A stretch of 64,000 nt of DNA from a virus (IMGVR_UViG_3300042396_000723:32185-96184); one strand, 5' to 3'; counted from the first letter of the stretch, positions 37,660-64,000 are shown. Numbers and translations: made by a program. The notes: generated by a model not told the origin, from the letters alone.

Positions 37660-38076
37660 GTGAATTATCGCCAAGAATTAAAACAGACCATAGAATTGTT
37701 TGTCCCTCAAGTTGAACAAGCATTTCTCAAAGCATTCTTTCTAAAAGACCTCGATTTTGGGCGGGATTTAATGGTGGGGGAGCGGACGGGTGCGATAGAT
37801 TGGTATACCTCTGACCTGGGATCTCTTGTAGGAAACGTGATGATTTCGATGGGTTGTAGCTCCCGATTAAATGCCGAGATAGAAAAAGCAACCGAGGCGA
37901 TTTATGCCAGACACGGGATATTTTCCATCAACGAGGAGGTTGTTAGAGCCATAGAGCTTTCAACCGCCAAGGTACAGCTAAAAGGGGAAGTGAATGCTAC
38001 AACAGTGCAACAAACTTCTTCTCGGCTCTGGGTAGCAATTTCCACGTTTCAAATTGACTGTTTTATTGGGTTGTGA
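37660..38076 (+). CDS. hypothetical protein (opposite-strand insert between minus-strand genes)
   Basis: 138 aa plus-strand ORF filling the gap between 37628 and 38078. Confidence 0.3.
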   Translation: MNYRQELKQTIELFVPQVEQAFLKAFFLKDLDFGRDLMVGERTGAIDWYTSDLGSLVGNVMISMGCSSRLNAEIEKATEAIYARHGIFSINEEVVRAIELSTAKVQLKGEVNATTVQQTSSRLWVAISTFQIDCFIGL

Positions 38077-38077
38077 T

Positions 38078-39682
38078 CTATTTTTTCATCCAATCAGCCA
38101 GTCCTTCTCGGTAAGTTTTAGCAAACGCATAGCATACCGCATCGGCTAAGTTAGGCGATCGCCCGATAATACGCTTAATATCATCTTTTTTGGTAATCAT
38201 TATTGTTTTCCCAGACTCCCACCACCGGAATGCACAGAGTTCTTCTTTTAATTGATCGTCGGGAGGTAAACAGATCGGGATTTGATTCTTGGGGTCTAAT
38301 AAGTCTCGCAGATTCCAGTACCAATAAGTCCGCATATTAGCAAAAGTCAAGAGTCCGCTTTTGTCTTTCAAATACTCGCCGTTTCCATCCTTCGCGGCTT
38401 CACTTCCTTTCAAGGGAATAACGTGCATTTTCATCCCTCGACAGGTATCGTGAACCGCAGCGCCCACCCCAATTACGTCAATTTGTACCTTTACCCCAAT
38501 GTTCGCCATACAGGAGGCAATCTGCTGCGCGACAATATTGCTGTCTGGGGTCTGGCTTCCATCAAATTCCCTGAGTCTATCAAGCCAGTTGTCCCATCGC
38601 AGAGCCAACACTGTCTTATCTATCCCACCCCGCGCCACATCCACACCAATATGGGACATTTTTAAGGTTTGAGGATAGTCAACCCATCGTTGCATCGCCA
38701 AAGTGACCCAATCCCCAGGAATAACTTGATAGGGGTCTGATTCTGGCTCGATGGTCATGTCGCCATAGAGAAGCTGCGATCGCAAAGGTTCAGGGAGAGA
38801 TTGCAGCACCCCTCTATATCCTGAATCTTTCAGGAAAGGATTGTCGTCTAGTGTCGCTCGAATAAATGTGCGGGATCGGGGTTCTAAGTCTTCGTCTCCA
38901 ATTCTGATCTTTTTAGGCTTGGGATAATAGAGTTTTCCCTCAACCTTTACAGGATCAAGAGAAGAAACCTCGTGGATTTCCTTGCCAATCGTGAGATAAA
39001 AGCTATCAACATCTACTTCTTGGTCTTTCCCGTTCACCCCCACAAACCAACGCAACTCACCTGGTTCGGCAAGGTGTCTTCCTGTCTGAGATTCATATTT
39101 TGGATCAAGCCAGGGAGCCAGGTAGCCGATAATCCATCGCCCACTTACTTGACTGGGAGGATTAAACGTAAAGATTACTCGGCATTTTTGATGGGGATCG
39201 GGACTTCTGCACCAACCTGTTAAAAAGAGGAATTGCTCAAGGGAGAACTCTGTCACCTCGTCTACTGCCTTGAGATCGTGTTCAATCCCTCGCCAGTTTT
39301 CAATATCACTTTCATGTTGCGCCGCACCAAACTTTAGAGTTCTCCCTCCGGGTATTTTCCTCCATAGCTTTTCGTTACTATTGTAAGTCGCCCCACTCCC
39401 CCGTAATAATAGCCGCGATTTTTCAATAATATCTAGCAGCCGAGGATACTCTCGCCGGAAAACAATTGATTTCCGGTGTTGTGTCACCGCCATAATCTGA
39501 ATGATTGCGGTTTTCCCCCCTCCAGCACTCCCCCCAAACCCAATAATGTCAGCATGGGAAGACAAAGCCATTCTTTGTGGTTCACTTTTGGGTTCCCAAG
39601 GGTTCCAGTTTGCAATACTCTGTCCAGTAAATCCTAATTTGTCTAATACAGAAGGGTAGCCACTATGTCTTTGTTTTGTCAC
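38078..39682 (-). CDS. terminase large subunit
   Basis: 534 aa; N-terminal Walker A-like GFGGSAGGGKT (ATPase) and an acidic-residue-rich C-terminal half consistent with an RNase H-like nuclease; size and position fit TerL. Confidence 0.75.
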   Translation of the reverse strand: MTKQRHSGYPSVLDKLGFTGQSIANWNPWEPKSEPQRMALSSHADIIGFGGSAGGGKTAIIQIMAVTQHRKSIVFRREYPRLLDIIEKSRLLLRGSGATYNSNEKLWRKIPGGRTLKFGAAQHESDIENWRGIEHDLKAVDEVTEFSLEQFLFLTGWCRSPDPHQKCRVIFTFNPPSQVSGRWIIGYLAPWLDPKYESQTGRHLAEPGELRWFVGVNGKDQEVDVDSFYLTIGKEIHEVSSLDPVKVEGKLYYPKPKKIRIGDEDLEPRSRTFIRATLDDNPFLKDSGYRGVLQSLPEPLRSQLLYGDMTIEPESDPYQVIPGDWVTLAMQRWVDYPQTLKMSHIGVDVARGGIDKTVLALRWDNWLDRLREFDGSQTPDSNIVAQQIASCMANIGVKVQIDVIGVGAAVHDTCRGMKMHVIPLKGSEAAKDGNGEYLKDKSGLLTFANMRTYWYWNLRDLLDPKNQIPICLPPDDQLKEELCAFRWWESGKTIMITKKDDIKRIIGRSPNLADAVCYAFAKTYREGLADWMKK

Positions 39683-41813: not shown

Positions 41814-43802
41814 ATGACCGCCCAATCATCCGAGACAACAAAAAAAGAAACCACCACAGAGATTGTGAATCGTTATAGAGAAGACTCTCGCGTCATGATG
41901 CAAGCGTTAGCGGAGAGTGCCGACGCAAGTTCGATGCGAAATCCTCTCCCTGTAACGGGAAGAATCCAGCCTTTCTCTCAACAGCAAGTAGAAAACTGTT
42001 TAGCAGACGCGATCTTAAAACGAATTGCATGGAGCCTTCCATCTTCGTCAACCCAAAAGATGTGGCAGTTATCCTTGGGGGATGACTTCTCTAGTAAGAC
42101 GGGTTCTAAATTAGTCCGAGATTATTATGCCTATCACGAAAGATTGAAAACCATATCACAATTTAGAAAAGCATTGCAGTTCTCTCGCTCTCATGGTGGG
42201 ACAGTTATTATTCTCAAGATTAACGATGGAAGACATTATTCCGAACCTGTTGATGAAGGCAAGATTAAATCAATCTCTGGGTTAATCGTTCGTCACCGAT
42301 GGCAAGTTGCTCCTTCGGTGAGAACGGCTGCTAGTATATTTGACCTTGATGACATTGAACATTATGAAATCCTAACAATTGACCAACAAATAAAACAAAA
42401 ATTACTATTTAACGGAACAAATTCCAAGCAGGATGATCGCCTGATTCATCGGTCAAGAATCCTCCGGTTTAATGGGGCATTAATGCCTGATGATTGGATG
42501 ATTTCCTATAACAATGGATGGGGATTGAGTGTCTTTGACGAGGTTTGGAAATATTATAAAAACTATACGAATGGACTCAATGCAGTAGGCGAATTAATTA
42601 AAACCCAATCAGTTCTACAGCATTCTTTTGAAGGACTGCGGGAACTGATGATGGCATCTGATGAAGAAAGTATCGCAGCTATTAAGCAAACCATGAAATC
42701 AATCCGACTAATGTTTGATCTATATGGCATGGTTCTCCACGACTCCCGTGAACAATTCAACTGGAATGCCCGCCCCGTCGTCGGGATGGATTCACTCGTG
42801 CAAGTACAGAAGGATGGGGTAACAGGAGCCTCTGGGATGCCTCACACGATAGTTTGGGGAGAAAGCCCTGGGGGTTTGGGGCGTGATGGCAAGGAGACCC
42901 AAATCAACTATGCTAACTCGGTGGCAGAGTACCAAGGAGAGAGCTTAGATCCTAGCGCAGCTATTCTTGATCGTTATATCTTCTTGGCTAAAGACGGCCC
43001 CACAAAAGGCAAAATCCCCGACAACTACCAGAGGCAGTACCCTTCTATCTTGAGGATGACCATCGAGGATCTCCGCTCTGGACGCTCATCTGATATTCAG
43101 GCATTGGCTTCAGGTATTCAAGCCGGATTCATCACGACAGATGAAGCTCGGACAGTGCCTTCTAACTCCGGTTGGTGGCCAGAGCTTAATCTTGATCAAA
43201 AAGCATGGGAAGAAGCCAGGAAAAAAGCAGAAGAACAAGCAAACTCCCTTGGTGGTTTTGATATGGGAGCATTAGGAGGAGAGGAAGTTGCCCCACCCAC
43301 TGAAGAACCCGTCGAAGAAGAATCTATAACTCAAATGGACAGTGCTGTTTACACCCCAATAAAGCGGGTTCTTAATTGGCACGGGCTATCAATTGGGGTC
43401 ACTCACGATAAAGGGGATCTTCGCTATAACAAAACGATGAAGGTAGGGTATGGGCATATTAGACGCAGCTATGGACACGCGGAGGACGCAAAAGCAATCG
43501 ACGTTTATATCAAAAATCCAAACTCACCTAGTCTCTGGAAGGTTCGGCAACTCAACACAACAACAGGGGAGATTGACGAAACAAAGTATTTCTTGGGTTT
43601 TGATTCCCCCAAAGAAGTGCGCGATTGCTATTACTATCATGCCGGATTAGATCGTTTTGGAGGAGTGGAGAAGTGCGATCCTACGGAATTAAACCAATAT
43701 CGCCAAGATGCAGAAGAATTGGAGGGAGTTAATGAAGTTTATCAAAATAAGATATTAACAGATGTAGCAAATAGAATCAATCAACAAACTCAATTAGATT
43801 AA
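41814..43802 (+). CDS. portal protein candidate
   Basis: 662 aa, first gene of the rightward head operon, divergent from the terminase operon; size and position fit a portal. No motif confirmed. Confidence 0.4.
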   Translation: MTAQSSETTKKETTTEIVNRYREDSRVMMQALAESADASSMRNPLPVTGRIQPFSQQQVENCLADAILKRIAWSLPSSSTQKMWQLSLGDDFSSKTGSKLVRDYYAYHERLKTISQFRKALQFSRSHGGTVIILKINDGRHYSEPVDEGKIKSISGLIVRHRWQVAPSVRTAASIFDLDDIEHYEILTIDQQIKQKLLFNGTNSKQDDRLIHRSRILRFNGALMPDDWMISYNNGWGLSVFDEVWKYYKNYTNGLNAVGELIKTQSVLQHSFEGLRELMMASDEESIAAIKQTMKSIRLMFDLYGMVLHDSREQFNWNARPVVGMDSLVQVQKDGVTGASGMPHTIVWGESPGGLGRDGKETQINYANSVAEYQGESLDPSAAILDRYIFLAKDGPTKGKIPDNYQRQYPSILRMTIEDLRSGRSSDIQALASGIQAGFITTDEARTVPSNSGWWPELNLDQKAWEEARKKAEEQANSLGGFDMGALGGEEVAPPTEEPVEEESITQMDSAVYTPIKRVLNWHGLSIGVTHDKGDLRYNKTMKVGYGHIRRSYGHAEDAKAIDVYIKNPNSPSLWKVRQLNTTTGEIDETKYFLGFDSPKEVRDCYYYHAGLDRFGGVEKCDPTELNQYRQDAEELEGVNEVYQNKILTDVANRINQQTQLD

Positions 43803-44589: not shown

Positions 44590-45555
44590 ATGTATAAAAA
44601 GATGACACCAACAGAAACTTCAGTAAAATTAGCGATTGCACAAGTCTTGTCAATGCCTTCTGTTTTTAACGCACCTCTTTACGTCTTGGATTTTAACATT
44701 GACGAAAAAGGGACGGTATCAGGAAGGTTTAGAGATGCTGCTAGACCCCGTGTATTTAGCTATGAGATTGCAGACGATGGAATAACCTTTAGTCCCTTTG
44801 TCCCTGGAAGAATGGATAGCAGTGACTGGAAAGTAGAAGACTGGGAGAAGTTTTCAGATGGCTATTCGTTTAGGATTGACGCAGGGATGCAAAAACGAAC
44901 CGACAAGCCAAAATGTAATCCGGCTGTTTCTTTTTCTTGTGGAAAGGCTTGTGTTAGTTTAAAAAAGAAATGCAAAACAGATCCTCAAGATCCGACTTCT
45001 GTAGCCAAGAAAGAAAAATTAAAAGCTGTTATTAAAGAGGTTACAGTTACCGACAAGACGAGCAAAATTAAAGTCAGTAAGGATAAATCTAGTAAGCCCA
45101 AAGCCAATAAATTGATCAATGACCTAGAACCCTTAGAGCCATTAAACACCTCTCGGACACCCACTGAAACCGTGTTACCTGAGCTAAGTTCTAACAATGT
45201 TGTTAAGGGTCTTGGTGGTAAAGTGGGCAGAGGAAAATATTCAGGCGATGCGGGTAGGGATTTTGAAGATACTGGCAAGATGATGAACTACCCACTAAAA
45301 AGCGTTGTAGCCACAAAGGACATGAAAGGGAAGGAAAAAGAAGTGGCAGACGTAGCAAAAATGTTGAAAGAATCCGAGAGAAATTGGCTCCCTGTTTATG
45401 TCAAAGAAGTTAGACCTTACGAGTATGAAGTTGTCGGAAATCATTTGACCCATGCAGCAGCAATAAAAGCAGGGTTTGAGAGGATTTGGACTATTCCGGT
45501 TGATTCAGATCCGGCTACTCTCAAACAGATTCAAATGTTAACAAACGGTAATTAA
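44590..45555 (+). CDS. modular family member A: conserved N-domain, 4-Cys linker, ParB/Srx-like C-terminus (tentative)
   Basis: N-domain (KLAIAQVLSMP...GRFRDAARPRVFSYEI...GYSFRIDA) and KPKCNPAVSFSCGKACVSLKKKCKTDPQD shared with the paralogs; C-terminus LPVYVKEV...YEVVGNHLTHAAAIKAGFERIWTIPV resembles ParB-like domains. Confidence 0.5.
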   Translation: MYKKMTPTETSVKLAIAQVLSMPSVFNAPLYVLDFNIDEKGTVSGRFRDAARPRVFSYEIADDGITFSPFVPGRMDSSDWKVEDWEKFSDGYSFRIDAGMQKRTDKPKCNPAVSFSCGKACVSLKKKCKTDPQDPTSVAKKEKLKAVIKEVTVTDKTSKIKVSKDKSSKPKANKLINDLEPLEPLNTSRTPTETVLPELSSNNVVKGLGGKVGRGKYSGDAGRDFEDTGKMMNYPLKSVVATKDMKGKEKEVADVAKMLKESERNWLPVYVKEVRPYEYEVVGNHLTHAAAIKAGFERIWTIPVDSDPATLKQIQMLTNGN

Positions 45556-45596
45556 TTCCTGTGTTTATTTTACAATCTTATAAATTAAGATTTGAT

Positions 45597-45997: not shown

Positions 45998-48900
45998 ATG
46001 GTCACAACCTTAAACCGTCAAAATCCCCGTCGCCTTGATGCTGCTCCTACGGAAGTGCAGATGAAACTTGGTATTTCTCAAGTTTTGTCGATGCCATTTG
46101 CCTACAACTCTCCGGTTATCGTTCTGGATTTTGAAGTAGGCAATAAAAACATCATCAAGGGACGGTTTAAGGATGCCATTAGATCCCGTGTTTTTGAGTT
46201 TGAGATTGGGGATTCTATCACGTTCAAGCCGTTCACCTGGAGGCGAACGGATAGCGACGTTGACCCGATGGCATGGGAAGACTTCTCTAAAGGGTATTGC
46301 TACCGATTCGATGCAGTCAAGACCGTCAGAAAGGAAAAACCTAAGTGTGGCAATACTTCTTATAACTGCGGTAAAGCCTGCATTGGCTTAAACAAGAATT
46401 GCAAATCAGATCCCCCCGATAAACCGTCCCAGGAGAAAGTTGATAAACTCAGAGCCGCGGCAGGGGAGTTTAAAGCTGTTCAGGGCGATCCAACCAAGAA
46501 GCAAGAGGATAATAAGTTAACGCCAAAACCACAGGAAGTTAAGGAAGTCGCGCCCACCCCCTCTCCCGATAAAGCAGAAGTCCCTGTCACCGACCTTGCT
46601 AAACAGCCACCTGTTGCCTTAAAAATTGGTAAAAAATCAGTCAACCTAAAAGACGACCTTGATTCCTACAAAGATTTAAGAATAACCGCCGATCCCGTTT
46701 TAGGTTGGCAAGTTATCAATAAGAATGGGAACGTACTGAGAGAACCGCCCAAGGGCAACACGGCTCCAAGTCATAGATTCAAGAAAAGAGAGCAGGCTGA
46801 AAAGTTTGCTAACGATGTGATGACACGGGTTGAGAAGTTGCAGAAGGCTCAACCAAAACCGGATGCTGATGTAAGTGACTCTGATAAAAGGTCATTTGAA
46901 AGTCTTTACACCACAAAATTATCATCCGCCCAACAGTTGCTTAACTTAGAAAAAAACGCAAAAATAGCGCGAATATCTCCCAGTGAAGATCAAAAAAATT
47001 ATGACAAAAAACAACCCGACCTCAATATTGATTCGGGGCCAGGAATAATGGAAGGTTGGAGGACTGCGAAACCAGACGGATCTGTCCAGGGAATCCCTTG
47101 GTCTGTCAAGGCGGAGGGTCAAGAAAAGTCACGGGCTATCGTGGGTGCTAGATTAACGGATCATCCAGCCAGCCCTAATTTAAAAAGACTCAGGTTATAC
47201 GACGCAGACGGACGTAATGAGACAATTGACTTCAAAAAGGGTGATAGAAACGCATCTCTTAGGGCTAGAAGACTTGTTAGAGAAATCGCACAAGGAAAGT
47301 CTCAAGAGATGGAATCTGGCGACATAAAAGCGTTGATTGAGGGAGGTAAAGAGGGTTTAGCTAAAAGAAAAGTGGAAAAGGCAAGATTAGCTGCTGAAGA
47401 CAAGCAATTTAAAGCAGCCTTAGATGATTATTTAAAATCAAAAAACCTAACAAGAGAAAGCATTAAAGGTTTGACCGATATCGGAATGGACGATCTTATC
47501 GAAAAAGTTGAGAAATACCAGAAATCACGATCTCAAACCCCCAATTCAGCAGGGGATAAGGGTGCGGGGGGTAAAACGTTTGACCTAAATGATTTATGGC
47601 GACAAACCGCCGACGCTGCTTATTCTAAAAACAAAGATGGTGTCTCAAAAAATCTTGAGCAATGGAAGGAAGTTGTAAAAAAATTAGAGTCAGGAGAAGG
47701 GATCTCTAAAGACGTTAACTTAAACGAATACGAAAAGTTAATGGATAATTTAGAAAAAAAATTAGTCCTCGATCCCAAAGATCCGTCTAATGTTGAATTT
47801 AAAAAGATTACGGGATCTATTTCTAAGATTCTTAGTAAAGCAGGCAGTCTCAACCCGTTAACACAAGAAGACCTAGAAAAAGCTCACCCTAACTTTAGAC
47901 CAATCATGCAACGAATTAATAAAACCGTTGCTAAGGATTATGAATTATTTGACAAAAAAGAGCGAGTTCAAAAAGAGTTAAATAGCCTAAAACAAGAAAA
48001 ATCTTATAACGAGGCTGTGATATTAAATAATTCAAAACGATTCCGAGAAATAGGTATTAATAATAACGAGGTAGAAATTCAAAGACTTTCCAAGAAAAAA
48101 CCGAGCGATTCAGTTGAGGTTAGAAATCCTGTCTCAAATTTACCAGAAAGGACTATTTCGGCATCCAAACGGATTAAGGAACTTCAAGATGAAATTGGGG
48201 AATTGAATAATAGTGAAAAAGCTAAAATAGAAGAAGACAGGGCTAGAAAAGAAATAGCCCGATTGCAAAGCCCAATGAAGGATGCAGAGAGTAGAATAAA
48301 CGCCATTTTAGACGAGAAGAAAAAATTAAGGGAATCTCGCGGCGGATCTAGTTCACAATCAGAACCCAAGCAAACCCCAAATTCAGTAGGGGTTGATGGT
48401 GCGGGGGGTAAATCAGTTGATCAACAATATAAGGATATAATTGCTAAGTCGAAAGATCCAAAGGGAACAGAGGAAGTTTTATCGTCAGCATTAAGAGGTG
48501 GGTTTGGTGACTTTGAAAGAAAAAATTATAACGAATATTCAACCGCTATAAAATCTGGGACTGTTCCAAAAGGAATGGGGAACTATTATCAAAAACAAGT
48601 CGACAAATATAAACCCATTATTGAGGCGGAAGATTTTATTAACGAAAGGAAGAAAAAAGCAATTAGTGGAGACTATGAAACAGAACAAGAAGCTGGGGTT
48701 TATGTTCTTAATAAATTAAAGCAAAAAGGCTACAAAGAACACGAATATTATGACAGTCCAGACTATGAAAAAGATTATGGAAAATTGGTGGGGGTAATGA
48801 AATCTGTTAAACTTCCTCCGCCGTTGTCTGGTATCGTCCCCGGTAAAGAATTAAAACAGACATTAACTCCGGGTGACAAACTACTTGTTAAAGAGGATAC

Positions 48901-49282
48901 TTATTCGTTAATGAGTAGTGGAAATACCCCTACTGGCTATCGAATAGTTGATGGTGGCGAAGTTTTAAAGGTTAATGTCAAGAATGTTAAAACCCGCGTT
49001 AGAGGCGAATACATGGGGAAACCCTACGAGAACGAGCCGTCTCTCGCTCTTGATAAAGTTACCCACGTCATCCGAGATGGTAAACGTTACAAGGTAGATG
49101 ATTCTGATAGATCCCCCAATGACTTAAAGTCGGAATCCTCCAAATCCCAGAAAGCAGTAAAACAAAAGGCAGTAAAACAGAAAGCAATAAAAGTTCAAGG
49201 GGAGCGATCGCAAAAACAAGAATCCCCTCTAATTCCGAAAGAGGAAATAGTTAAAGATGCTCCAATACTGATGTTAAGGTAA
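45998..49282 (+). CDS. modular family member B: N-domain, 4-Cys linker, long Lys/Glu-rich helical C-terminal region
   Basis: 1094 aa; N-domain and KPKCGNTSYNCGKACIGLNKNCKSDPPD shared with paralogs; C-terminal region has internal repeats (SAGDKGAGGKTFD / SVGVDGAGGKSVD; QKAVKQKAVKQKAIK). Confidence 0.5.
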   Translation: MVTTLNRQNPRRLDAAPTEVQMKLGISQVLSMPFAYNSPVIVLDFEVGNKNIIKGRFKDAIRSRVFEFEIGDSITFKPFTWRRTDSDVDPMAWEDFSKGYCYRFDAVKTVRKEKPKCGNTSYNCGKACIGLNKNCKSDPPDKPSQEKVDKLRAAAGEFKAVQGDPTKKQEDNKLTPKPQEVKEVAPTPSPDKAEVPVTDLAKQPPVALKIGKKSVNLKDDLDSYKDLRITADPVLGWQVINKNGNVLREPPKGNTAPSHRFKKREQAEKFANDVMTRVEKLQKAQPKPDADVSDSDKRSFESLYTTKLSSAQQLLNLEKNAKIARISPSEDQKNYDKKQPDLNIDSGPGIMEGWRTAKPDGSVQGIPWSVKAEGQEKSRAIVGARLTDHPASPNLKRLRLYDADGRNETIDFKKGDRNASLRARRLVREIAQGKSQEMESGDIKALIEGGKEGLAKRKVEKARLAAEDKQFKAALDDYLKSKNLTRESIKGLTDIGMDDLIEKVEKYQKSRSQTPNSAGDKGAGGKTFDLNDLWRQTADAAYSKNKDGVSKNLEQWKEVVKKLESGEGISKDVNLNEYEKLMDNLEKKLVLDPKDPSNVEFKKITGSISKILSKAGSLNPLTQEDLEKAHPNFRPIMQRINKTVAKDYELFDKKERVQKELNSLKQEKSYNEAVILNNSKRFREIGINNNEVEIQRLSKKKPSDSVEVRNPVSNLPERTISASKRIKELQDEIGELNNSEKAKIEEDRARKEIARLQSPMKDAESRINAILDEKKKLRESRGGSSSQSEPKQTPNSVGVDGAGGKSVDQQYKDIIAKSKDPKGTEEVLSSALRGGFGDFERKNYNEYSTAIKSGTVPKGMGNYYQKQVDKYKPIIEAEDFINERKKKAISGDYETEQEAGVYVLNKLKQKGYKEHEYYDSPDYEKDYGKLVGVMKSVKLPPPLSGIVPGKELKQTLTPGDKLLVKEDTYSLMSSGNTPTGYRIVDGGEVLKVNVKNVKTRVRGEYMGKPYENEPSLALDKVTHVIRDGKRYKVDDSDRSPNDLKSESSKSQKAVKQKAVKQKAIKVQGERSQKQESPLIPKEEIVKDAPILMLR

Positions 49283-49457: not shown

Positions 49458-50186
49458 ATGACTAATTTATCATTATTACCTGACGATATTCGTTCTGAAT
49501 TTTCCGTTAACGATCAAGGTCAGGCTTTTGCGAGTAGACGGGCGATCGCACGGTTGGCAGGCGTTTCTCATGTGTCCATCGGGAATCTATTGGATAAAAT
49601 CGCTGTTAACCTAGACCTCCCCGAAAGCATTGAAATCCTTGGAGGGCAGGACTTTGAGGGTGTTAACCTGATCCCTGATACCGTTGCCTCCCGGATTATT
49701 GAGTATTACGCTTTTGATGCTAAACGTTATTGCACAGAACAAGCCAAGCGAGTTTATAAAGCATTCGGGGCTATCGGGTTTCGGTCGTGGGTACAAACTG
49801 AATTAGGTTGGCAATATTCACAACCTAAGTTACCTCAGACTTATGCTGAGGCATTACTGGAGGCGGGACGGTTAGCGTTAGAAGTGGAGAAGTTGGAAGC
49901 CGAGAAAACATTGCTTGAGCAAGAGAATGGCGAACTCTCCAAAAATTTAGATGAGTTATTTGATTATTCCTCTATTGTTCGGATTGCCAAGTTTAACCAA
50001 ATCTCAGAGAAAATCTTTAACTGGCGGTTACTCAAGGCATTGAGTCTTAAAATGGGGTTAGAAATTAAAAAAGTCCCGTGTCCCAGGTTTGAGACAAAAA
50101 GCCTATATTCTCACGATGTCTGGCGTGTTGCTTATCCTGAAATGAAGCTACCAGAAACGACAACGCTAGTTATTAACAGAGGATAA
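49458..50186 (+). CDS. antirepressor-like protein, paralogous in its C-domain to the Rha-family gene at 26576-27265
   Basis: C-terminus PQTYAEALLEAGRLALEVEKLEAEK...YSHDVWRVAYPEMKLPETTTL is near-identical in pattern to 26576-27265; the N-terminal domain is different. Confidence 0.5.
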   Translation: MTNLSLLPDDIRSEFSVNDQGQAFASRRAIARLAGVSHVSIGNLLDKIAVNLDLPESIEILGGQDFEGVNLIPDTVASRIIEYYAFDAKRYCTEQAKRVYKAFGAIGFRSWVQTELGWQYSQPKLPQTYAEALLEAGRLALEVEKLEAEKTLLEQENGELSKNLDELFDYSSIVRIAKFNQISEKIFNWRLLKALSLKMGLEIKKVPCPRFETKSLYSHDVWRVAYPEMKLPETTTLVINRG

Positions 50187-51160: not shown

Positions 51161-52675
51161 ATGGTTGAAATCAGGCTTGATGCTCCAGCTAAATTTAGGG
51201 TAATCAGAACTGATGATGGTCGCCTCCATTGTGAGGGGTCTTTTTGTCGTGATGGGGTGTTGGAATATCGTCAGCCTGATGGCTCCATAGTCCACGAACT
51301 CAGGAGACCGGAAACCAATGCAGAACTAGCCACAGTGGAGAGTTTTAAGCTCCTCCCCCTGGTAATTGAACATCCCCATGTTGGGCTTCTTAATAGCGAA
51401 AGTTATAAGGATTACGCAGTCGGGATGACTGATTCTTCTGCTTATTACAACAAGGCTGAAGGGGTGATCGAAGGCTTGGTGTCGTTTTTTGATGCTAAAG
51501 CGATCGCCCTAATTGATTCAAGGGAAAAGGAACAGTTGTCTGCGGGATATACCTGCGATATCAAACAAGGGGCAGGGGTATGGAATGGTCAACACTACGA
51601 CAGAGAACAGATTAATGTTCGTGCTAACCATTTGGCTTTAACGAGCCGAGGAAGGGCAGGAGAAGATGCCCGTCTCCGATTAGATAGTGCTGCGGGGATT
51701 GGGCAAGCTGTTGCAGGGCAAGCTGTTGAAAACCCTAGTAACCCCAACAAAACCAAAGATAATGGAGATAATGAACAGCGCATGGCAATAATTAGATGCG
51801 ATGGAGTCGAATATTCAGGAATCCCTGAAGTTTTCGCTTCTATTAGTGGTACTCGATTCCGTGAATTAAAAGAATTAAAGGAACGCCACGATTCGCTTGT
51901 TACACGGTTTGACGCTACGATTCGGGAGAATCGGAAGCTAGAAGCCGCACAAGAGAACTACCAGTTTCGGTTGGATAACCTGGAAATCATTGTGGACAAT
52001 GCTGACAATGTCCTTGGTGAATTAGGTTATTACCGGAACGACATGGGGCAATACGTCCGTGTTGATGGGGGCAAAAAGAAAATGATGTCTCTTGTTCCCG
52101 AAGATGAAGAAATGATGGAAGATGAGGACAATGAAGATGAAGAAATGATGGAAGATGAGGTTATGGAAGAAAAAGAAACCATGACTTCCAGAAAGAAAAA
52201 AAAGTCCAAACCTCGTGCTGATGGCGACGATGAAGGCGAGAGTGATTACCGGGGTGATTCAATCGGGGATCTGTTGGCGATTTGGAAGGAAGCCGACAGT
52301 TTGTTACCAGGGTTCTCTGACACTCGGTTTGATAGTGGCTTCTCCACTAGCGATATCAAGCGCACTTTGTTGGCTGAAATCGAACCCAATATGGATTTGA
52401 CGTTCCGATCCGATTCTTATGTAGACGGGGTTTTTGCCTACATTCAGGAGAATTATGATTCCTCCCCCACCGATCCAGGTGACGAAGAAGAAGGGGATGA
52501 CGAGGAGGAAGACGATGGAGACTCGGAGGAGTTTTCCCATCGCCTTGATTCGGTACTCAAAAGACCTGCTCAATCTACCTACGGAGATGAACTCACCGAA
52601 TGGGAAAGACGACGGGTAGATGCCTATAAGCAGCCTTTAACGATAGGAAAAACACGCACGGGGTTTACTAGATAA
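51161..52675 (+). CDS. capsid scaffolding / head maturation protein candidate
   Basis: 504 aa; acidic low-complexity C-terminal half (MMEDEDNEDEEMMEDEVMEE, DEEEGDDEEEDDGD) typical of scaffolding proteins; lies immediately upstream of capsid-like genes. Confidence 0.4.
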   Translation: MVEIRLDAPAKFRVIRTDDGRLHCEGSFCRDGVLEYRQPDGSIVHELRRPETNAELATVESFKLLPLVIEHPHVGLLNSESYKDYAVGMTDSSAYYNKAEGVIEGLVSFFDAKAIALIDSREKEQLSAGYTCDIKQGAGVWNGQHYDREQINVRANHLALTSRGRAGEDARLRLDSAAGIGQAVAGQAVENPSNPNKTKDNGDNEQRMAIIRCDGVEYSGIPEVFASISGTRFRELKELKERHDSLVTRFDATIRENRKLEAAQENYQFRLDNLEIIVDNADNVLGELGYYRNDMGQYVRVDGGKKKMMSLVPEDEEMMEDEDNEDEEMMEDEVMEEKETMTSRKKKKSKPRADGDDEGESDYRGDSIGDLLAIWKEADSLLPGFSDTRFDSGFSTSDIKRTLLAEIEPNMDLTFRSDSYVDGVFAYIQENYDSSPTDPGDEEEGDDEEEDDGDSEEFSHRLDSVLKRPAQSTYGDELTEWERRRVDAYKQPLTIGKTRTGFTR

Positions 52676-53505
52676 TGCGGTACAATTACAATCTTCAATT
52701 TGATCGGGCGACTCCTGGCATGGGCGAGGGATCTATTAATTTTCCGAGGGTCAAAGCCCTTGTTTCTGTCAAGAATGCTGTTAAAGAGGTCTGGACTCTG
52801 GCGGTTCCTGCCTCCCCCACTTCTAGCACTACATATACCGTCAAATTAAACAACGGACTAGGTACGGCACGTTTTACAACCGACGCTAGTGCCACTCAAG
52901 CGGAACTGCAAGCTGGTTTATTGAATGCAATCCGAATAAACCCTGCTTTTGGGCGACGAGGGATTGCTGCTGTTAGTGGGAATAATGTGTTGTTTACAGC
53001 ACTGGAATATGGTATCGAAAATATCCTAACAGTTACTGGTGCTAGTTTAACAGCAACTAAAACTACGGCGATGACCATACCTCTTCCTGTCCCCTTCGGT
53101 CGGTTTGTCGCCAGAGCAAACACTGAAACCGATCCCAAAGTTGCAGGGCTTCCTACTGCTATTACTGACGTAATCCTGGGCATTACTCGAATCGTCAAAG
53201 ATATCGAAATGCAGCCTTTGATAAATCAAGGTGCAAGCTATGGTGGAACGACTTACCCATATCAAGATGTGATGGACGTGGTTGACCGGACAGGAGAATC
53301 GTCAGGGATCTGGGTTGAATGTGTCGAGACGGATATCACAATTAATGATGCCGTCTATGTCTCTATTGCTGCGGGACACGAGGGGAAAGCAACAAAGGTG
53401 ACAAGTGGCACGATTAATATCTCCACGAAGGCTGAGTTCAAGTGTTCCCCCGTAGTCACTAGCACTGGTGCGGTGTGCGTTTTGATCGGCTTCAATGTTC
53501 CCTAA
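52675..53505 (+). CDS. head structural protein candidate
   Basis: 276 aa, Thr/Ala/Gly-rich; start overlaps the scaffold-like gene stop. Confidence 0.35.
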   Translation: MRYNYNLQFDRATPGMGEGSINFPRVKALVSVKNAVKEVWTLAVPASPTSSTTYTVKLNNGLGTARFTTDASATQAELQAGLLNAIRINPAFGRRGIAAVSGNNVLFTALEYGIENILTVTGASLTATKTTAMTIPLPVPFGRFVARANTETDPKVAGLPTAITDVILGITRIVKDIEMQPLINQGASYGGTTYPYQDVMDVVDRTGESSGIWVECVETDITINDAVYVSIAAGHEGKATKVTSGTINISTKAEFKCSPVVTSTGAVCVLIGFNVP

Positions 53506-53530: not shown

Positions 53531-54484
53531 ATGATGAACTTTTCTGGGACTACAAGGTTAGATGCTGATGAAATCGGCACGTTCTTTGGCTCTCTGATGG
53601 ATTTAGAGGCTCAGATAGATAAGGAATTTGACCTTGCGGACTATCCTTTCGCTGCTGGAGTCATTTGCCCTCTGAATATCCAAAACAAGCCCTGGGCAAA
53701 AACCTGGGGGTATCGGTGGCTCCGCCACGTTGGGCAGTTCAAGTTAATCCGAAACTACACCACAGACCTTCCCGAAGTGGAACTGGTCTATGGCGAGATG
53801 AAGATGCCGATTCATAAATGGGGACAAGGCTATAGCGTCTCTGAGGATGATATCGCGGCTGTTAGTCGGATGGGCGAGAGTATTGAAGAAGACAAAATCT
53901 GGACAATTCAAGAAGCCGCACAACAAAAAATCAATCAGTTGGTGGCAAACGGGGATTTAGAAACAGGAATGCCCGGTTTCTTGAATCATCCCCAAGCACT
54001 GCGGTCTTATGCTCCCTTCCCTTTGAACGGGTCAGCAACATCACAGCAAAAACTGAGTGTATTGAATGATTGTGTTAATGCTCCGACTCGGCTGACCAAT
54101 AACCGAGAGAAGCCGGACACATTGTTGATGGATTCGGAAACTTACGAACACCTCTCCTCGGATATTATTCAAATCGGCACATCCGCATTGGATCGTACGG
54201 TGTTAGAGCATTTCTTAAAAGTCAACCCTAATATCAAAGAAGTCGGCGTTGTGTCCGAGATGGCTCCTGACTATTTAGAGTCGATTGGTTTAGCTCCCAC
54301 CCGCTTTATTCAGGCTTTCCGTCGAGATCCCAAAAAAGTCTCTGCTAAGATTTATCAACCGTTAAAGTGGACTGATACTCGCCCCATTGGTGTTGATTCT
54401 TTCTGGCGTGGTGCCAAGTTTAAGTTTGGGGGAATTGATCTCAAACGCCCATTCTCCATGCACGTTGTAGTATTACCTGAATAA
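53531..54484 (+). CDS. major capsid protein candidate
   Basis: 317 aa ORF downstream of the scaffold-like gene, with a strong RBS context; assignment by position and size. Confidence 0.4.
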   Translation: MMNFSGTTRLDADEIGTFFGSLMDLEAQIDKEFDLADYPFAAGVICPLNIQNKPWAKTWGYRWLRHVGQFKLIRNYTTDLPEVELVYGEMKMPIHKWGQGYSVSEDDIAAVSRMGESIEEDKIWTIQEAAQQKINQLVANGDLETGMPGFLNHPQALRSYAPFPLNGSATSQQKLSVLNDCVNAPTRLTNNREKPDTLLMDSETYEHLSSDIIQIGTSALDRTVLEHFLKVNPNIKEVGVVSEMAPDYLESIGLAPTRFIQAFRRDPKKVSAKIYQPLKWTDTRPIGVDSFWRGAKFKFGGIDLKRPFSMHVVVLPE

Positions 54485-55940: not shown

Positions 55941-57365
55941 ATGCTGAAATCAAAACCAAGTTCTTTGTATCGGGTTGATGAAGATGAAGTAGCAATGGGA
56001 AGTGGTGGGAGAGGAACTGCACCAACCGAAGCCCAAATGAAGCTATTTATTGCCCAAACTTTGTCAATGAACTTCGCCTATAACGCCCCAGTTGTTGTGC
56101 TTAAATTTGATGTTGCCGAGAATGGGAATATTGCCGGATTATTTAAAGATGCGGCACGTCCACGGATGTTTTCCTTTACCTTAGACGGGGAGTCCGTAAC
56201 TTATAAGCCTTACAAACCTGGTAAAATGGACAGCTTGGAATCAGACGAGGATGTCCAAGAATGGGAGGCATTTTCAGAGGGGTACGGGTTCCGCGTAGAT
56301 GCGGGGGTAGGGGGCAAAAAAAAGCCTCAATGCGTTAAGCCCACCGCTTACAATTGTGGGAGTGCCTGTATTAATGTGATGAAGGACTGTAAGACTAACG
56401 CCAAAGATGCAGTTTCTAAGGATAGGCTTAAAAAGTTGAAAGGTGTGGCGATGTCTTATTACAAGGAATTTGAGAAACTTGATAAGACAGAAAGAGGCAG
56501 TGACAAACAGAAGGGATTTGGCGACAAATCAAATCAAGCTAGTCGGAAAAGAGTTGAATTGATGGAGCAATCCAAAAGCAAAAAGGGGGTAAAGTCGGAC
56601 GAACCCCAGATCAAGCCCAAGGCAGAAAGTAAAAAGCCTTCTACTCAAAAATTATCAACACAGAAAACGGTAGAACCCGAAGTTAAAACCAAGCCAAACG
56701 TAGAACCTAAAAAGACGGAATCCAAGCCAAAGTCCAAAGCCAATCCCTTTTATAGTGACGAACCAATTAAGGATTATGAGACTTTTAAAAAGGAAATACC
56801 AAAAGAACTGGCTAGGTTTAATTTTGAATACAATATGGACGGGTTGATCCCTATTCCAAGAATGAGAGAGGAATTAAAAGGGAGAGTAAAAGCAGAGGAC
56901 TTTGATAAGTGGATGCTACAGTCTCAAGCCGATAATGATAATATTCGACTTAGTGAAGGGCAAAAGAAAATGCCAGGGGGGATAAAAACCGAACTAGGAA
57001 ACCACAGGGATAACATTCGATTTTTTGACAAAGAGGCTATGGAAAAAGCTAGGACTGAAACGAAAAGAAAACCCGGTCAAATAATAGATCCAAAAGAATT
57101 TGAAGACGTGGCAATGAAGTCCTTAACCGATCTTGATAAGGACGGGAAATATGGCAATCTCATCCCTATTCATGAACTCAGAAAAACCCTTGGCGACAAA
57201 GTAAGTCGAGGGGATTTCAATAATTTATTGATGGAAATGCAGGCAAATGACAAGGTTCAATTAATTGGGGGTCAAATGACAGATGCCACCCCAAAAAAAG
57301 TGGAGGACTCTGTTGTATCAGAGCTGGGGGCATATCGTTATTACGTTAAAATCCTCAAGGATTAA
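55941..57365 (+). CDS. modular family member C: N-domain, 4-Cys linker, duplicated C-terminal domain
   Basis: 474 aa; KPQCVKPTAYNCGSACINVMKDCKTNAKD; the C-terminus carries two related ~45-aa units (GLIPIPRMREELKGRVKAEDFDKWMLQSQADNDNIRL / GNLIPIHELRKTLGDKVSRGDFNNLLMEMQANDKVQL). Confidence 0.5.
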   Translation: MLKSKPSSLYRVDEDEVAMGSGGRGTAPTEAQMKLFIAQTLSMNFAYNAPVVVLKFDVAENGNIAGLFKDAARPRMFSFTLDGESVTYKPYKPGKMDSLESDEDVQEWEAFSEGYGFRVDAGVGGKKKPQCVKPTAYNCGSACINVMKDCKTNAKDAVSKDRLKKLKGVAMSYYKEFEKLDKTERGSDKQKGFGDKSNQASRKRVELMEQSKSKKGVKSDEPQIKPKAESKKPSTQKLSTQKTVEPEVKTKPNVEPKKTESKPKSKANPFYSDEPIKDYETFKKEIPKELARFNFEYNMDGLIPIPRMREELKGRVKAEDFDKWMLQSQADNDNIRLSEGQKKMPGGIKTELGNHRDNIRFFDKEAMEKARTETKRKPGQIIDPKEFEDVAMKSLTDLDKDGKYGNLIPIHELRKTLGDKVSRGDFNNLLMEMQANDKVQLIGGQMTDATPKKVEDSVVSELGAYRYYVKILKD

Positions 57366-57466: not shown

Positions 57467-59332
57467 ATGATCATAGAGACTAAATCAGCCCCAACAAAAG
57501 CTCAAATGCAAGCAGCGATCGCCCAGACTCTTGCTCTTCCTTTTGCCTATAACTCCCCAGTGGATGTGATGGACTTTAAGGTAGATGGCACGGGTAAAAT
57601 ATCAGGGCGATTCAAGGATTCTGCCCGTCCAAGGGTGTTTGATTTTGAGTTAGATGGAAATACCGTCAACTTCAAACCTTACACGACAGGACGTATGGAT
57701 TCGGACGATGCAGTGGAACAATGGGAGGAGTTCTCGTCAGGGTATTCCTATCGTTTTGATGCTAAGGCAAAAGCCAAGGCGAAAAGCAAGACAGGAGACT
57801 CCAAGAAACCCCAATGCGTTAAACCCACAGCATATAATTGCGGAAAAGCCTGTATAAATATTAATAATAATTGTAAATCCAACCCCGACGATGCTAACTC
57901 AAAGGATCGTTTAGAAAAACTGAAAGCTGCTGGTATTGATTACGCTAAAGAAACTAAGAAATCCACTCCTAAATCTACCGCAAAAACCAAGAAAGAGGTA
58001 GAAAAACCACCGGAAATAGATAAAACCCCTAAAATAGATAAAACCCCTGAAAAGATAGAGGGAAAGGCTACCGAGTCCAAATCCCTTAATTTAGTAGGAA
58101 AAGGGGATCACGAGTCCGTCCCCAAAGATGCGAATGAATACTATGAAGCAATGAAAACATCGGGCAATCCTATCTCTTATGACGATGCCATAAAGATTAC
58201 CGGAGCCGTTAGAGAGTGGACGGAGGATGCTTCTTATATTAGGGAATCTCAAAAAGCAGGGAAATACAGCATTATTGCCGACCGGATTAATGATTACGTT
58301 AAAAGTTCAACGCCATTCAAGGGCGAAATTTATCGAGGCATCTCCTTCGGATCAACAGATGAGGCTTTGAGTTGGGCTAAGGGAGATAGTGATGGGATAT
58401 TAGATAATCAGAATGCCCATGCTTCTTGGACTTCTAACTGGGATAAAGCCAGAAAGTTTGCTGGTAACAATTCGGTAAACGACTTTACATCGCAACCTGT
58501 CATTATCAAAACAAATAATAAGTCGGGTGCCTCCATCAAAAACCTAAGCAACATTGGCACAGAAGATGAGGTAGTGGTTGTCAAAGACACTCGCCATCGG
58601 GTTAAGAATGTTGTATACGAAGATGGTGTTTTGATCGTTGAGACAGAAGAAGTTTCTCCAGATGAGGGAAAGAAAGCGCCTGAACCATCACCAGAAATAA
58701 CTAAACCCCAAAAAGAATCCGAGGAAAAGGCAGTTAAACAACCCGAAAATAAACCCAAAAACCTTAATTTAGTGGGCAAAGGCGATCATGAATCCATGCC
58801 ATCAAGCCACAAAGAGTATTATAAAGCACTGAAAAAAGCAGGGGTCAATATTTCTGAGAAGGAGGCAGCAGCCACCACTACAGCCATCTATAAATGGACG
58901 AGGAATGCTAACGACATCCGAGCCGATCAAAAGGCAGGAGAGGAGAACGAAGATGCAAATCGAATCTCTAATTATGTCAGGAACTCAACCCCATACAAAG
59001 GCGAAGTTTACCGAGGGATTCACTTTGAAACCAAAGAGGAGGCTTTAAACTGGACTAAAGGCGACAAGGATGGAGTGCTAGATAATCAAGGTGCTCACGC
59101 CTCTTGGTCATCTAGCCTTAAAACAGCAGAAGAATTTTCAGACGATTTCTTTATTGAGGAAAAAAGATATCCTGTTGTCATTAAATCAATCAACAAATCA
59201 GGTGCTTCTATTAAGAATTTAAGCAACATCAAAGAAGAAGACGAGGTTATGGTTTTAAAGGATACTCGCCATCGGGTTAAAAGTGTCAGGGAAGAAAACG
59301 GACGGATTATTGTTGAAGCTGAGGAAGTATAG
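57467..59332 (+). CDS. modular family member D: N-domain, 4-Cys linker, two tandem ADP-ribosyltransferase-like domains
   Basis: 621 aa; each duplicated C-terminal unit has INDYV / ISNYV, YRG (KGEIYRGISF / KGEVYRGIHF), an STS-like HASWTS / HASWSS, and ExE followed by hydrophobics (TEDEVVVV / EEDEVMVL), matching the R-S-E ART motif order. Confidence 0.55.
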   Translation: MIIETKSAPTKAQMQAAIAQTLALPFAYNSPVDVMDFKVDGTGKISGRFKDSARPRVFDFELDGNTVNFKPYTTGRMDSDDAVEQWEEFSSGYSYRFDAKAKAKAKSKTGDSKKPQCVKPTAYNCGKACININNNCKSNPDDANSKDRLEKLKAAGIDYAKETKKSTPKSTAKTKKEVEKPPEIDKTPKIDKTPEKIEGKATESKSLNLVGKGDHESVPKDANEYYEAMKTSGNPISYDDAIKITGAVREWTEDASYIRESQKAGKYSIIADRINDYVKSSTPFKGEIYRGISFGSTDEALSWAKGDSDGILDNQNAHASWTSNWDKARKFAGNNSVNDFTSQPVIIKTNNKSGASIKNLSNIGTEDEVVVVKDTRHRVKNVVYEDGVLIVETEEVSPDEGKKAPEPSPEITKPQKESEEKAVKQPENKPKNLNLVGKGDHESMPSSHKEYYKALKKAGVNISEKEAAATTTAIYKWTRNANDIRADQKAGEENEDANRISNYVRNSTPYKGEVYRGIHFETKEEALNWTKGDKDGVLDNQGAHASWSSSLKTAEEFSDDFFIEEKRYPVVIKSINKSGASIKNLSNIKEEDEVMVLKDTRHRVKSVREENGRIIVEAEEV

Positions 59333-59437: not shown

Positions 59438-60532
59438 ATGAAAAAACCCCAATGCGTAAAGCCAACATCATATAACTGCGGAGCGGCTTGTATCAACGTT
59501 TCCAAATCTTGCCAACAAGTCCCTTCTGAATCTTTTGGGCGATCGCGTCTTCAGAAGTTAAAACAAATTGCTTCTATTTATGCGAAGCAAAACACAGCAA
59601 AATCTCAAAGACAAGGGGCTACGGCTAACAAGATCATAGGATCAATTGAAGAAAAAAGGAAAACTGAAGCGACATCTTTGGCACAAGACAGAAAAGTTAT
59701 TAACCAAGACCGTAGAAAAGCTAGGTTAAAAGCCGAAGCAAAAGCCAAGAGAGAGCAACTATTAAAGATGTATGAAGATGTTAGTAAAACGTCAACATCA
59801 AAAGGCAATGTCCCCAAACTTTTGAATACAGAAGCTCCTGACAGGGAGCTAACAAGGTTAAAAAATAAGTACGAAAAGCAATCGGTTGAAACGGCAAAGA
59901 CCAACCTACAAAAAGCCGAGAGAGCGCTAAGTAGTGCGCTTAAAACTATAGGGGAGATGAAACAGGAGTCTGATAAATTCCTAGAAGAAACCCGAAAACT
60001 GGTACAGGTAGACAAACCTACTAAATTAAACTCATCGGTCAAAACCGGAACCCCTAACGCCCATAAAAAAGGTGTTGAGGCGTTCCAAAAAATGATCTCA
60101 ATTCCAGGCTTGGACACTCCAGTTAGTATTGTGGAAACCCCTCCAGAAAGGAAGGGGAGAAGTTGCTACAAACCCAAGACAAATAATGTATTCATGGGTA
60201 ATTCCGACCCTGCCGTTGTAGTTCATGAGATGAGTCACTGGCTAGAGGAGAAAGTACCAGGAATCAGAGAGGAAGTTCAGGAGTTTTATAATAAGAGAAC
60301 CCAAGGCGAGAAAAATATTAAACTAAGTGAAGTTACTGGCAATAAAAACTATGGGGATAGAGAGGTTACAAAGGTTGATAAATGGTTAAATCCTTACATG
60401 GGCAAGGAATACAAAAACGCCTCTGAAATCCTTTCTATGGGAATGGAAATAATGTACCGCAACCCTGCTTATTTAGCCAAGAATGACCCCGAAATGTTCG
60501 ACTTTATTTATAGTGTTGTGAGGAGAGGATGA
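59438..60532 (+). CDS. modular family member E: 4-Cys linker plus HExxH domain, N-domain deleted
   Basis: Starts at ATG 59438 (MKKPQCVKPTSYNCGAACINVSKSC...); C-terminal VVVHEMSHWLE ... SMGMEIMYRNPAYLAKNDPEMFDFIYSVVRRG shared with F and G. Confidence 0.5.
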   Translation: MKKPQCVKPTSYNCGAACINVSKSCQQVPSESFGRSRLQKLKQIASIYAKQNTAKSQRQGATANKIIGSIEEKRKTEATSLAQDRKVINQDRRKARLKAEAKAKREQLLKMYEDVSKTSTSKGNVPKLLNTEAPDRELTRLKNKYEKQSVETAKTNLQKAERALSSALKTIGEMKQESDKFLEETRKLVQVDKPTKLNSSVKTGTPNAHKKGVEAFQKMISIPGLDTPVSIVETPPERKGRSCYKPKTNNVFMGNSDPAVVVHEMSHWLEEKVPGIREEVQEFYNKRTQGEKNIKLSEVTGNKNYGDREVTKVDKWLNPYMGKEYKNASEILSMGMEIMYRNPAYLAKNDPEMFDFIYSVVRRG

Positions 60533-63474: not shown

Positions 63475-64000
63475 ATGCTAATAGATAAATCAACTGAAGA
63501 AGACTATCTCAATGGTCGTACTTTTGCTCAGGGTTATTTTTTGCGGATTGACGCAGCTAGAGCCGACGCAGCTAGAGCCACCCCAAAATGCAAGAATGGG
63601 GTTTCTTATAGCTGTGGGAAGTCCTGTATTAGCCTTAAGAAAAATTGCAAGTCAGAACCGCAAGATGAAAAAGGGAAACAAATTCTTAAGGCAGTAAAAT
63701 CCAAGGCTTCTGAGTTTGCTAAAACAAAAGCAAAAACACCCAAAGCTACTCCAGTTAAGCCTACTGAAATTAAGCCAGATGTAGAAGCTCCTCCCCCTCC
63801 CCAAGGTGATATAAAGGTTAAGGCATCTAAATCAAAAACCAAGGTATCAAAACCCGTCGCAGTGGAAGCAGAGAAAAAAGCGACTCCTGCCAAAACCAAA
63901 AAAGCAAAACCCTCAACAAAGCTTAGTGAAGTTAGCAAAGAGCAGAAGAAAGTGGAGGCGATCGCAAAACCATCCAAAACAATAGGAGATGGAACTCATG
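63475..64000 (+). CDS. modular family member H (partial, runs off window): truncated N-domain, 4-Cys linker, Lys-rich region
   Basis: ATG at 63475 preceded by AGGAGG; FAQGYFLRIDAARADAARATPKCKNGVSYSCGKSCISLKKNCKSEPQD; contains a 15-bp tandem duplication (GACGCAGCTAGAGCC x2); no stop before the window end. Confidence 0.45.
   Translation, partial: MLIDKSTEEDYLNGRTFAQGYFLRIDAARADAARATPKCKNGVSYSCGKSCISLKKNCKSEPQDEKGKQILKAVKSKASEFAKTKAKTPKATPVKPTEIKPDVEAPPPPQGDIKVKASKSKTKVSKPVAVEAEKKATPAKTKKAKPSTKLSEVSKEQKKVEAIAKPSKTIGDGTH

Follow-up and report, generated by a model that had tools for sequence, protein, structure and literature searches.

With virion-carried effectors, such as polyvalent proteins, MuF toxins and T4 Alt-like enzymes, many phages disarm the host within the first seconds of infection; little is understood of how the particle retains such cargo and passes it on. 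Here we analyse a stretch of viral DNA of 64,000 nucleotides (IMGVR_UViG_3300042396_000723:32185-96184, hereafter the window), a close relative of the Planktothrix phage PaV-LD (96.5% identity over 76% of length). Its head gene block holds eight paralogous genes, A to H, that encode a short four-cysteine element, which we call the Cys4 unit. The unit is a real, widely conserved mini-domain that appears to be previously undescribed. We propose, with even chances of being right, that it is a Cys-braced basic hairpin and helix acting as a handle at the head of cargo modules in virion-associated proteins of the polyvalent type.

Polyvalent proteins have been described in phages and conjugative elements (Iyer, Burroughs, Anand, de Souza and Aravind, 2017; PMC5512222). 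In common with the window family, they are virion-associated head-block proteins that carry ADP-ribosyltransferase (ART), ParB-like, zincin-like peptidase, InPase, LPD1 and SNF2 helicase domains, and a portal-InPase fusion such as the one in the window has also been described (PMC5512222). The window differs in that most cassettes are separate genes, each with an N-terminal domain (N-domain) and a Cys4 unit. The main text of PMC5512222 makes no mention of cysteine or Zn-ribbon, and the unit has no match among the LPD and other families of Pfam. As for packaging, the family resembles polyvalent proteins: it occurs in a phage related to PaV-LD, it lies in the head gene block, and its members were detected in virions of Aphanizomenon phage CL131. 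As for two effectors in one protein, D has two ART modules and the relatives are multi-module, while most window paralogs have one recognisable module or none.

MuF minor head proteins (SPP1 gp7 / Mu gpF) with C-terminal toxin domains (Jamet et al. 2017; PMC5576092) likewise fuse a constant N-terminal head module to variable C-terminal effectors, ADP-ribosyltransferases included, and their gene lies just after the portal. None of the eight window paralogs matches Phage_Mu_F (PF04233) at E up to 0.1. With the same library, PF04233 is found in CL131 on the portal protein, apart from the Cys4 proteins; that protein, 1393 aa long, combines portal, InPase and Phage_Mu_F. To our knowledge, MuF proteins lack a Cys4 unit.

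The pre-toxin junctions of polymorphic toxins (VENN of CdiA, PT-TG, PT-HINT) operate partly through conserved DNA. They share with our locus a short conserved element at the border of constant and variable parts, at which N-truncated, orphan-like copies begin. In contrast, the window DNA is not conserved beyond protein needs, and the Cys4 element differs in its predicted nature: a folded, Cys-braced mini-domain that repeats within proteins. Altogether, virion-carried multi-effector systems are a known type, represented by polyvalent proteins and MuF toxins, and it is the Cys4 unit itself that appears to be new.

Conservation of the Cys4 unit

The segment at 44905-44990 (plus strand, frame 1) translates as KPKCNPAVSFSCGKACVSLKKKCKTDPQ and belongs to a 321-aa open reading frame (ORF) at 44590-45555, gene A. 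The A4 profile hidden Markov model (HMM) scores this unit at E 1.3e-14. The pattern C-x(6,7)-C-G-x2-C-[IV]-x5-C is present in eight plus-strand paralogs. A six-frame scan with the relaxed C-x(5,8)-C-G-x2-C-[ILV]-x5-C gives the same number of matches, all on the plus strand and all in long ORFs, for an expectation of 0.01 per mononucleotide shuffle; chance occurrence of the motif was rejected on these counts. When the eight copies are aligned, the four cysteines and the Gly after Cys2 are invariant, and nothing else is. In five of the eight paralogs the motif cysteines are the only ones of the protein.

An earlier note on this DNA had given every family member a tighter pattern, K-[PA]-x-C-x(6,7)-C-G-x-[AS]-C-[IV]-x(5)-C-K-x(3,4)-D, placed at the junction between the N-domain and the variable modules. 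The exact expression holds for A, B, C and D; E (CQQ), F (CRI), G (G-S-I-C) and H (T-P-K-C) depart from it. Members lacking the N-domain were said to begin exactly at the motif, which is true of E only (MKKPQC, with the ATG at 59438 taken as its start): F still has 14 residues ahead of Cys1, including YRED, a remnant of the N-domain's YRxDA, and H has 38, including the N-domain tail FAQGYFLRIDA. Past Cys4 the conserved block extends for about 30 residues as a predicted helix (SKDRLxKLK...), followed by the variable parts, so that the motif lies inside the constant part and not at its end. The junction stands as a domain boundary, with the corrections that the conserved block runs further and that the unit also occurs without an N-domain.

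The loss of the cysteines in homologs, which the earlier note had named as fatal to its claim, is not seen: all four are kept in every full-length close homolog. A word-indexed search returned 27 close relatives, of which all full-length ones retain the four cysteines, and in close homologs these and the Gly are invariant. An exhaustive HMMER profile search over 1.84 billion representatives found 312 relatives at E <=0.001, 130 of them at <=1e-10. Among the collected sequences a unit-only profile delimits 214 distinct copies, and 207 of these read C-C-C-C, without a single-Cys change and without a Cys-to-His or Cys-to-Asp swap. In 174 proteins with 180 motifs, scanned with an aliphatic residue required after Cys3, the motif makes up 3.7% of residues and contains 720 of 858 cysteines (84%); outside it the Cys frequency is 0.15%.

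Spacing is tightest in the second half of the unit. Between C1 and C2 there are 5-8 residues; between C2 and C3 there are 3 in 92% of copies and otherwise 7 or 2 (variants CKGxKGVxC and CGVC); between C3 and C4 there are 6 in all copies. Tyr occupies position C2-2 in 87% and Gly position C2+1 in 93%. Conservation extends to K-P-K before C1, Lys at C3+5 and Arg or Lys after C4; the residue after C3 is aliphatic in nearly all copies (one has Arg). In many copies R-[LIM]-D-A stands ahead of the unit and [ST]-K-E-R-L-x-K-L behind it. The unit is strongly basic: its roughly 31 residues have a net charge that averages +5.7. It is retained from 41.7% GC in the window to 62-66% GC in Cyanobium-type contigs, and this persistence across 41-66% GC argues that selection acts on the protein.

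Pfam and NCBIfam contain no family for the unit or for the N-domain. Against the PDB, the unit profile gave only non-significant matches to LDL-A, conotoxin and hedgehog entries (E 0.4 or worse), and the unit has no fold match there. Foldseek against viral models found only the PaV-LD paralogs and proteins of CL131 and of the Nodularia phages. The unit is a domain missing from current libraries, and it marks cassette borders in giant unannotated proteins.

Gene context, repetition and presence in virions

The paralogs form two groups, A-B and C-H, inside the head/virion gene block. Genes A and B follow the gene of the portal protein with its C-terminal InPase domain; C to H follow those of the protease (DUF2213), the minor capsid protein, the major capsid protein and small head-completion proteins. 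PaV-LD ORF085R, the ortholog of H, lies upstream of a tape-measure-like gene. All eight paralogs match the PHROG profiles phrog_16619 and phrog_33618, with best E values of 5.2e-248 (D) and 1.6e-223 (F); the former is labelled 'minor head protein' and the latter has no assigned function.

The same placement recurs elsewhere: in the window and in three other contigs (L043, L047 and L048), genes with the unit stand among head genes or right behind the portal. In the distant 110-kb viral contig L043 the portal is directly followed by four cassettes, namely N-domain-unit-ART, InPase-N-domain-unit, N-domain-unit-HExxH-like and N-domain-unit-ParB_N. In Cyanobium-type contigs, multi-unit proteins either follow the portal directly or lie right ahead of the protease and capsid genes. 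A contig search with a subfamily alignment found only contigs of Cyanobium metagenome-assembled genomes.

The unit is an autonomous, repeating protein unit. E, F and others have it without an N-domain, and a protein has one to four copies of it: three in P0057 (residues 19, 472 and 943), three in P0063 (residues 440, 916 and 1283, then an LPD1 domain) and four in gp048 of CL131 (ORF positions 30, 639, 969 and 1303), where lipase and alpha/beta-hydrolase modules lie between the copies. It is almost never C-terminal, with a median of 330 residues beyond the last copy. The domains attached to it in 81 relatives include InPase, ART/PARP, LPD1, SNF2/Sno-type helicase, DnaJ, lipase, hydrolases, GNAT and pentapeptide repeats.

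Purified CL131 particles have been analysed using liquid chromatography coupled to tandem mass spectrometry, with the hits listed in SI Table 5 of that study (PMC6293099). The CL131 proteins that carry the unit are ORF044, ORF045, ORF047 and ORF048, which we found independently with the unit profile (E 1e-24 for gp048), and all four were detected in the purified virions (PMC6293099, SI Table 5). Coverage was 46% for ORF044 (9 peptides), 56% for ORF045 (123 peptide-spectrum matches), 38% for ORF047 (14 peptides) and 54.6% for ORF048 (105 peptides); the supplement reports coverage and peptide counts, not termini (PMC6293099), and the legend of the CL131 SDS-PAGE does not assign the bands. Most likely, the virus of the window also carries the family's proteins inside its particle. 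CL131 is a siphovirus in which no major tail protein was identified; its gp045, encoded at 39949-41310 of contig L049, might play a structural part in the tail.

Proposed role of the unit and rival readings

The full consensus runs from (Y)RxDA through a short basic linker and K-P-x-C1-x(5-8)-C2-G-x2-C3-[ILV]-x5-C4-[RK] to ...SKERLxKL. We picture it as a mini-domain some 50 residues long, in which a strongly basic beta-hairpin leads into an amphipathic helix and the four cysteines would serve as structural staples. The unit heads every variable effector module in the family, which spans PaV-LD-like and related cyanophages: in the window the cassettes are eight separate genes, mostly made of N-domain, unit and effector, and in other phages two to four cassettes are joined into one giant protein. 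It would act as the constant handle that keeps each cargo module inside the particle, its partner being either the packaged DNA or a shared protein, internal or close to the portal. The cross-brace would most probably consist of two disulfides, C1-C3 and C2-C4, able to form once the particle is extracellular.

AF2 models of the unit predict a hairpin with a two-residue turn, its first strand ending in Cys2 and its second containing Cys3, and then a helix (pLDDT 74-83). In D, residues 74-112 ahead of Cys1 are predicted to be disordered (pLDDT <50). The DSSP register of the models suggests that Cys2 and Cys3 are on opposite faces of the hairpin. The pairing itself is suggested by five degenerate copies, two in P0145, one in P0155, one in P0125 and KCGESHIPKKFKC in CL131 gp048. 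There, Cys2-x10-Cys4 is kept in exact register, Cys1 is absent and Cys3 is replaced by Trp, Tyr or His; no loss pattern other than this joint one was seen. Because Cys1 and Cys3 are lost as a pair, C1-C3 and C2-C4 disulfides are favoured.

Relatives of the unit outside phage cargo point the same way. A word-indexed search with the short unit profile returned only seven proteins, and these led to a secreted-type family: 695 clusters of small proteins (68-128 aa; P0167-P0286; L003 5001-5222) with two tandem units and no Pfam domain. A hydrophobic, signal-like N-terminus is present in 114 of the 120 examined, and 99 have exactly eight cysteines. The two units read C-x5-C-G-x2-C-I-x5-C-H, often with an Ala/Pro-rich linker between them; some of the genes are on Alphaproteobacteria chromosomes, e.g. 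of Aliidongia and Rhodospirillales. By hhalign, the window family and these repeats match with a probability of 70.6% and E 3.9e-5. The small two-unit bacterial proteins are, judging by their N-termini, apparently secreted, which favours disulfides over zinc. The earlier note had offered a zinc knuckle, a disulfide-stabilised hinge or a processing site for a head protease, and through the paired loss and these relatives the evidence leans to the hinge.

Several points weigh against the proposed handle and its disulfides. The facing of Cys2 and Cys3 is read from secondary structure, not from coordinates or Cys-Cys distances. Of the five degenerate units, four match the HMM weakly when taken alone (independent E 0.03-2.8), and the fifth, P0125, is at 0.002; these units are identified by register and context, and they represent perhaps three or four independent events. 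The link to the secreted proteins is of moderate strength, with 25 aligned, Cys-rich columns. The phage proteins are made and assembled in a reducing cytoplasm, where Zn(Cys)4 would form and disulfides would not, and the frequent His after Cys4 in the secreted family keeps a metal role in play. The virion evidence comes from CL131 only, the sole experimental anchor, which is a relative and neither the window phage nor PaV-LD. Incorporation of E and F into the particle is uncertain, since they lack the N-domain. We infer the holding role from position, repetition and charge, and that the disulfides truly form is likewise an indirect conclusion.

The cytoplasmic assembly also speaks for a zinc knuckle, a possible but less likely reading: one zinc in a Zn(Cys)4 site would fold a small basic finger in the cytoplasm, which would bind the packaged DNA or another nucleic acid, the cargo travelling with the genome. 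Zinc knuckles and ribbons, e.g. the CCHC of retroviral Gag, share with the unit a short basic segment, four metal-capable ligands and a Gly after Cys, here the Gly after Cys2 beside four invariant cysteines. The mean charge of +5.7 suits nucleic-acid binding, a metal site would tolerate C2-C3 loops of 2, 3 or 7 residues, and the His after C4 in the secreted relatives could point to a metal. Polyvalent proteins are, moreover, thought to be delivered together with DNA (PMC5512222). However, the unit differs from knuckles and ribbons in spacing and ligand set: it shows neither the CxxC-knuckle spacing nor a match to a zinc-group fold, and its spacing fits no zinc-finger family of Pfam. None of the 207 four-Cys copies has swapped a Cys for His or Asp, and a single metal site would not be expected to lose C1 together with C3 and retain C2 and C4. 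The relatives with signal-like N-termini are probably extracytoplasmic, and the predicted hairpin register sets C2 and C3 on opposite faces. Iron-sulfur clusters are bound by spacings such as CxxCxxC; this option was set aside, the spacing of the unit being very different.

Among small disulfide-braced hairpin modules, a likeness to the N-terminal half of the LDL-receptor class A repeat (LDL-A) holds at the level of pattern only: an aromatic residue at Cys2-2, an Ile after Cys3 and roughly C-x6-C-x3/4-C-x6-C. LDL-A is among the top PDB profile matches, but at E 1.2-1.9, which is not significant, and Pfam Ldl_recept_a does not match the unit. LDL-A has six cysteines and a calcium-binding acidic cluster (D-x-S-D-E), whereas the Cys4 unit has four cysteines and no such cluster.

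Two further readings concern what the junction does as a protein. In one, which we consider unlikely, the RxDA, basic linker and KKPxC form a processing signal, at which either the DUF2213 head maturation protease or the HExxH modules of the family itself would cut; the cut, equally unlikely in our view, would remove the N-domain or split the modules of the giant proteins. In multi-module proteins each module does start with the unit; ahead of Cys1 comes a basic stretch of variable length that is predicted disordered (D 74-112), and the protease gene is in the same block. Polyvalent proteins have been proposed to be processed by their own zincin-like peptidases (PMC5512222). Yet a cleavage signal has no need of four invariant cysteines or of a fixed six-residue spacing, and the secreted bacterial relatives have no such proteases nearby. 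Processing could coexist with a structural role. The other, a speculative reading with little chance of being right, extends the disulfide brace to a redox-switchable lock common to the phage cargo proteins and the secreted bacterial mini-proteins. Disulfides would form in oxic water, clamping the effector to its internal partner and keeping it compact for passage through the tail channel; on entry into the next host, the reducing cytoplasm would undo the staples, with release or activation of the effectors. If true, this would be a new environmental gating of injected phage proteins and a new extracytoplasmic mini-fold.

The earlier note also took the motif for a recombination or fusion joint. 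At the level of DNA this would make the conserved coding sequence a patch of homology at which N-domains and effector cassettes are swapped, as at VENN or PT-TG junctions and their orphan cassettes. E and F do resemble orphan cassettes that start at the unit, and cassette content differs from PaV-LD despite about 95-98% identity of the shared DNA: A and an intact G are found only in the window, and ORF065R only in PaV-LD. One breakpoint falls close to the motif: of G, PaV-LD retains only the N-domain, as ORF083R, and the similarity breaks 55 nt before G's Cys1. Metagenomes hold N-domain-only ORFs and deletion chimeras (P0013, P0015, P0016, P0025). The other breakpoints are distant, with gene A deleted from about codon 6 and the gene C swap about 530 nt downstream of the motif. 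Between paralogs, codon identity at identical motif residues is merely 0.11-0.75 (mostly 0.25-0.55), and the longest exact nucleotide matches between any two are 10-16 nt, mostly out of register. These values also led us to reject recent gene conversion among the paralogs. With no long identical DNA at the motif, the joint is a protein domain boundary rather than a DNA recombination hotspot; the persistence of the motif from 41% to 66% GC, which indicates protein-level selection, adds to making a DNA-level joint very improbable. What stands of the claim is the protein boundary, which rearrangements often adjoin.

As the handle that we propose, or in another role, the unit offers a compact sequence tag for cargo in phages of bloom-forming Planktothrix, Aphanizomenon, Nodularia and Cyanobium-type cyanobacteria. 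It connects this cargo with more than 690 clusters of uncharacterised, apparently secreted small proteins, at least some of them from Alphaproteobacteria.

The eight genes and their neighbours

All genes below are on the plus strand, and the second interval given for each spans the codons from C1 to C4. Gene A (44590-45555; 44914-44973) encodes 321 aa (phrog_16619, E 1.5e-27) with an N-domain, the Cys4 unit and its helix, and a ParB-like C-terminus; BLASTP aligns this C-terminus with that of P0008, which carries ParBc, at E 3e-5. PDB searches with the ParB-like C-terminus and with the HExxH C-termini of other paralogs returned nothing useful. The body of the gene, 44608-45581, has no counterpart in PaV-LD (38060-38079), where only a short remnant, ORF059R, is annotated.

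Gene B (45998-49282; 46346-46402), of 1094 aa, has an N-domain, the unit and a long C-terminal region without a family match. An internal segment of about 790 nt (47584-48370) is missing from its ortholog, PaV-LD ORF061R, and is about 72% identical to part of PaV-LD ORF065R, which suggests that an internal module was exchanged or duplicated. Relative to the window, PaV-LD has about 3.7 kb extra, ORF065R-068R. IMG/VR contains roughly 40 contigs of the PaV-LD-like type.

Gene C (55941-57365; 56331-56390), of 474 aa, has an N-domain, the unit and a variable C-terminus; its last 150 aa or so differ from PaV-LD ORF078R. Gene D (57467-59332; 57815-57874), of 621 aa, has an N-domain, the unit and two tandem ADP-ribosyltransferase modules, with a match to Pfam ART (PF01129) at E 1.2e-5, above the gathering cutoff. 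The tandem duplication of this module of about 200 aa is visible in the translation, at aa ~205-400 and ~425-621; both copies start with LNLVGKGDHES and contain YRG, ASW[ST]S and EDEV motifs.

Gene E (59438-60532; 59453-59512) has no N-domain: the unit comes first, and behind it lie a coiled region and then an HExxH metallopeptidase-like module. The gene (phrog_33618, E 1.7e-208) encodes 364 aa from the ATG at 59438, or 372 aa from the TTG at 59414, where the ORF opens. Its HExxH stretch is VHEMSHWLE, with a weak match to Pfam Peptidase_M90 (E 0.036). Gene F (60529-61668; 60571-60630), of 379 aa, has no N-domain except for the YRED remnant, then the unit, a short PVIPAPVIPAPVV repeat downstream of it, and an HExxH module. 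Its start codon overlaps the stop codon of E (ATGA, 60529-60532), and this overlap suggests that the two genes without N-domain may be translationally coupled.

Gene G (61950-63401; 62280-62339, the C-G-S-I-C variant), of 483 aa, has an N-domain, the unit and an HExxH module. Gene H (63475-64000; 63589-63648), the ortholog of PaV-LD ORF085R, is partial and runs off the window; a truncated N-domain tail precedes its unit.

Among the metagenomic relatives, P0013, P0025, P0027, P0015, P0018 and P0020 are deletion chimeras or N-domain-only ORFs. In the chimeras the N-domain is joined to the tail of an HExxH module, or KKPQCV straight to IHEMSH; the N-domain-only relatives stop just ahead of the Cys4 unit. 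Both kinds may be real variants or assembly artefacts.

The portal gene with its C-terminal InPase domain, an inorganic pyrophosphatase-like domain of the polyvalent-protein type, is at 41814-43802 (Pfam Phage_portal_3, E 2.4e-44; InPase PF18823, E 5.2e-26). Between the two paralog groups lie the genes of the head maturation protease DUF2213 (51161-52675), the XM1 gp53-like minor capsid protein (52675-53505) and the major capsid protein (53531-54484). The same interval of the head block holds a 242-aa ORF (49458-50186) with weak matches to the anti-repressor Ant and to BstA-like proteins.

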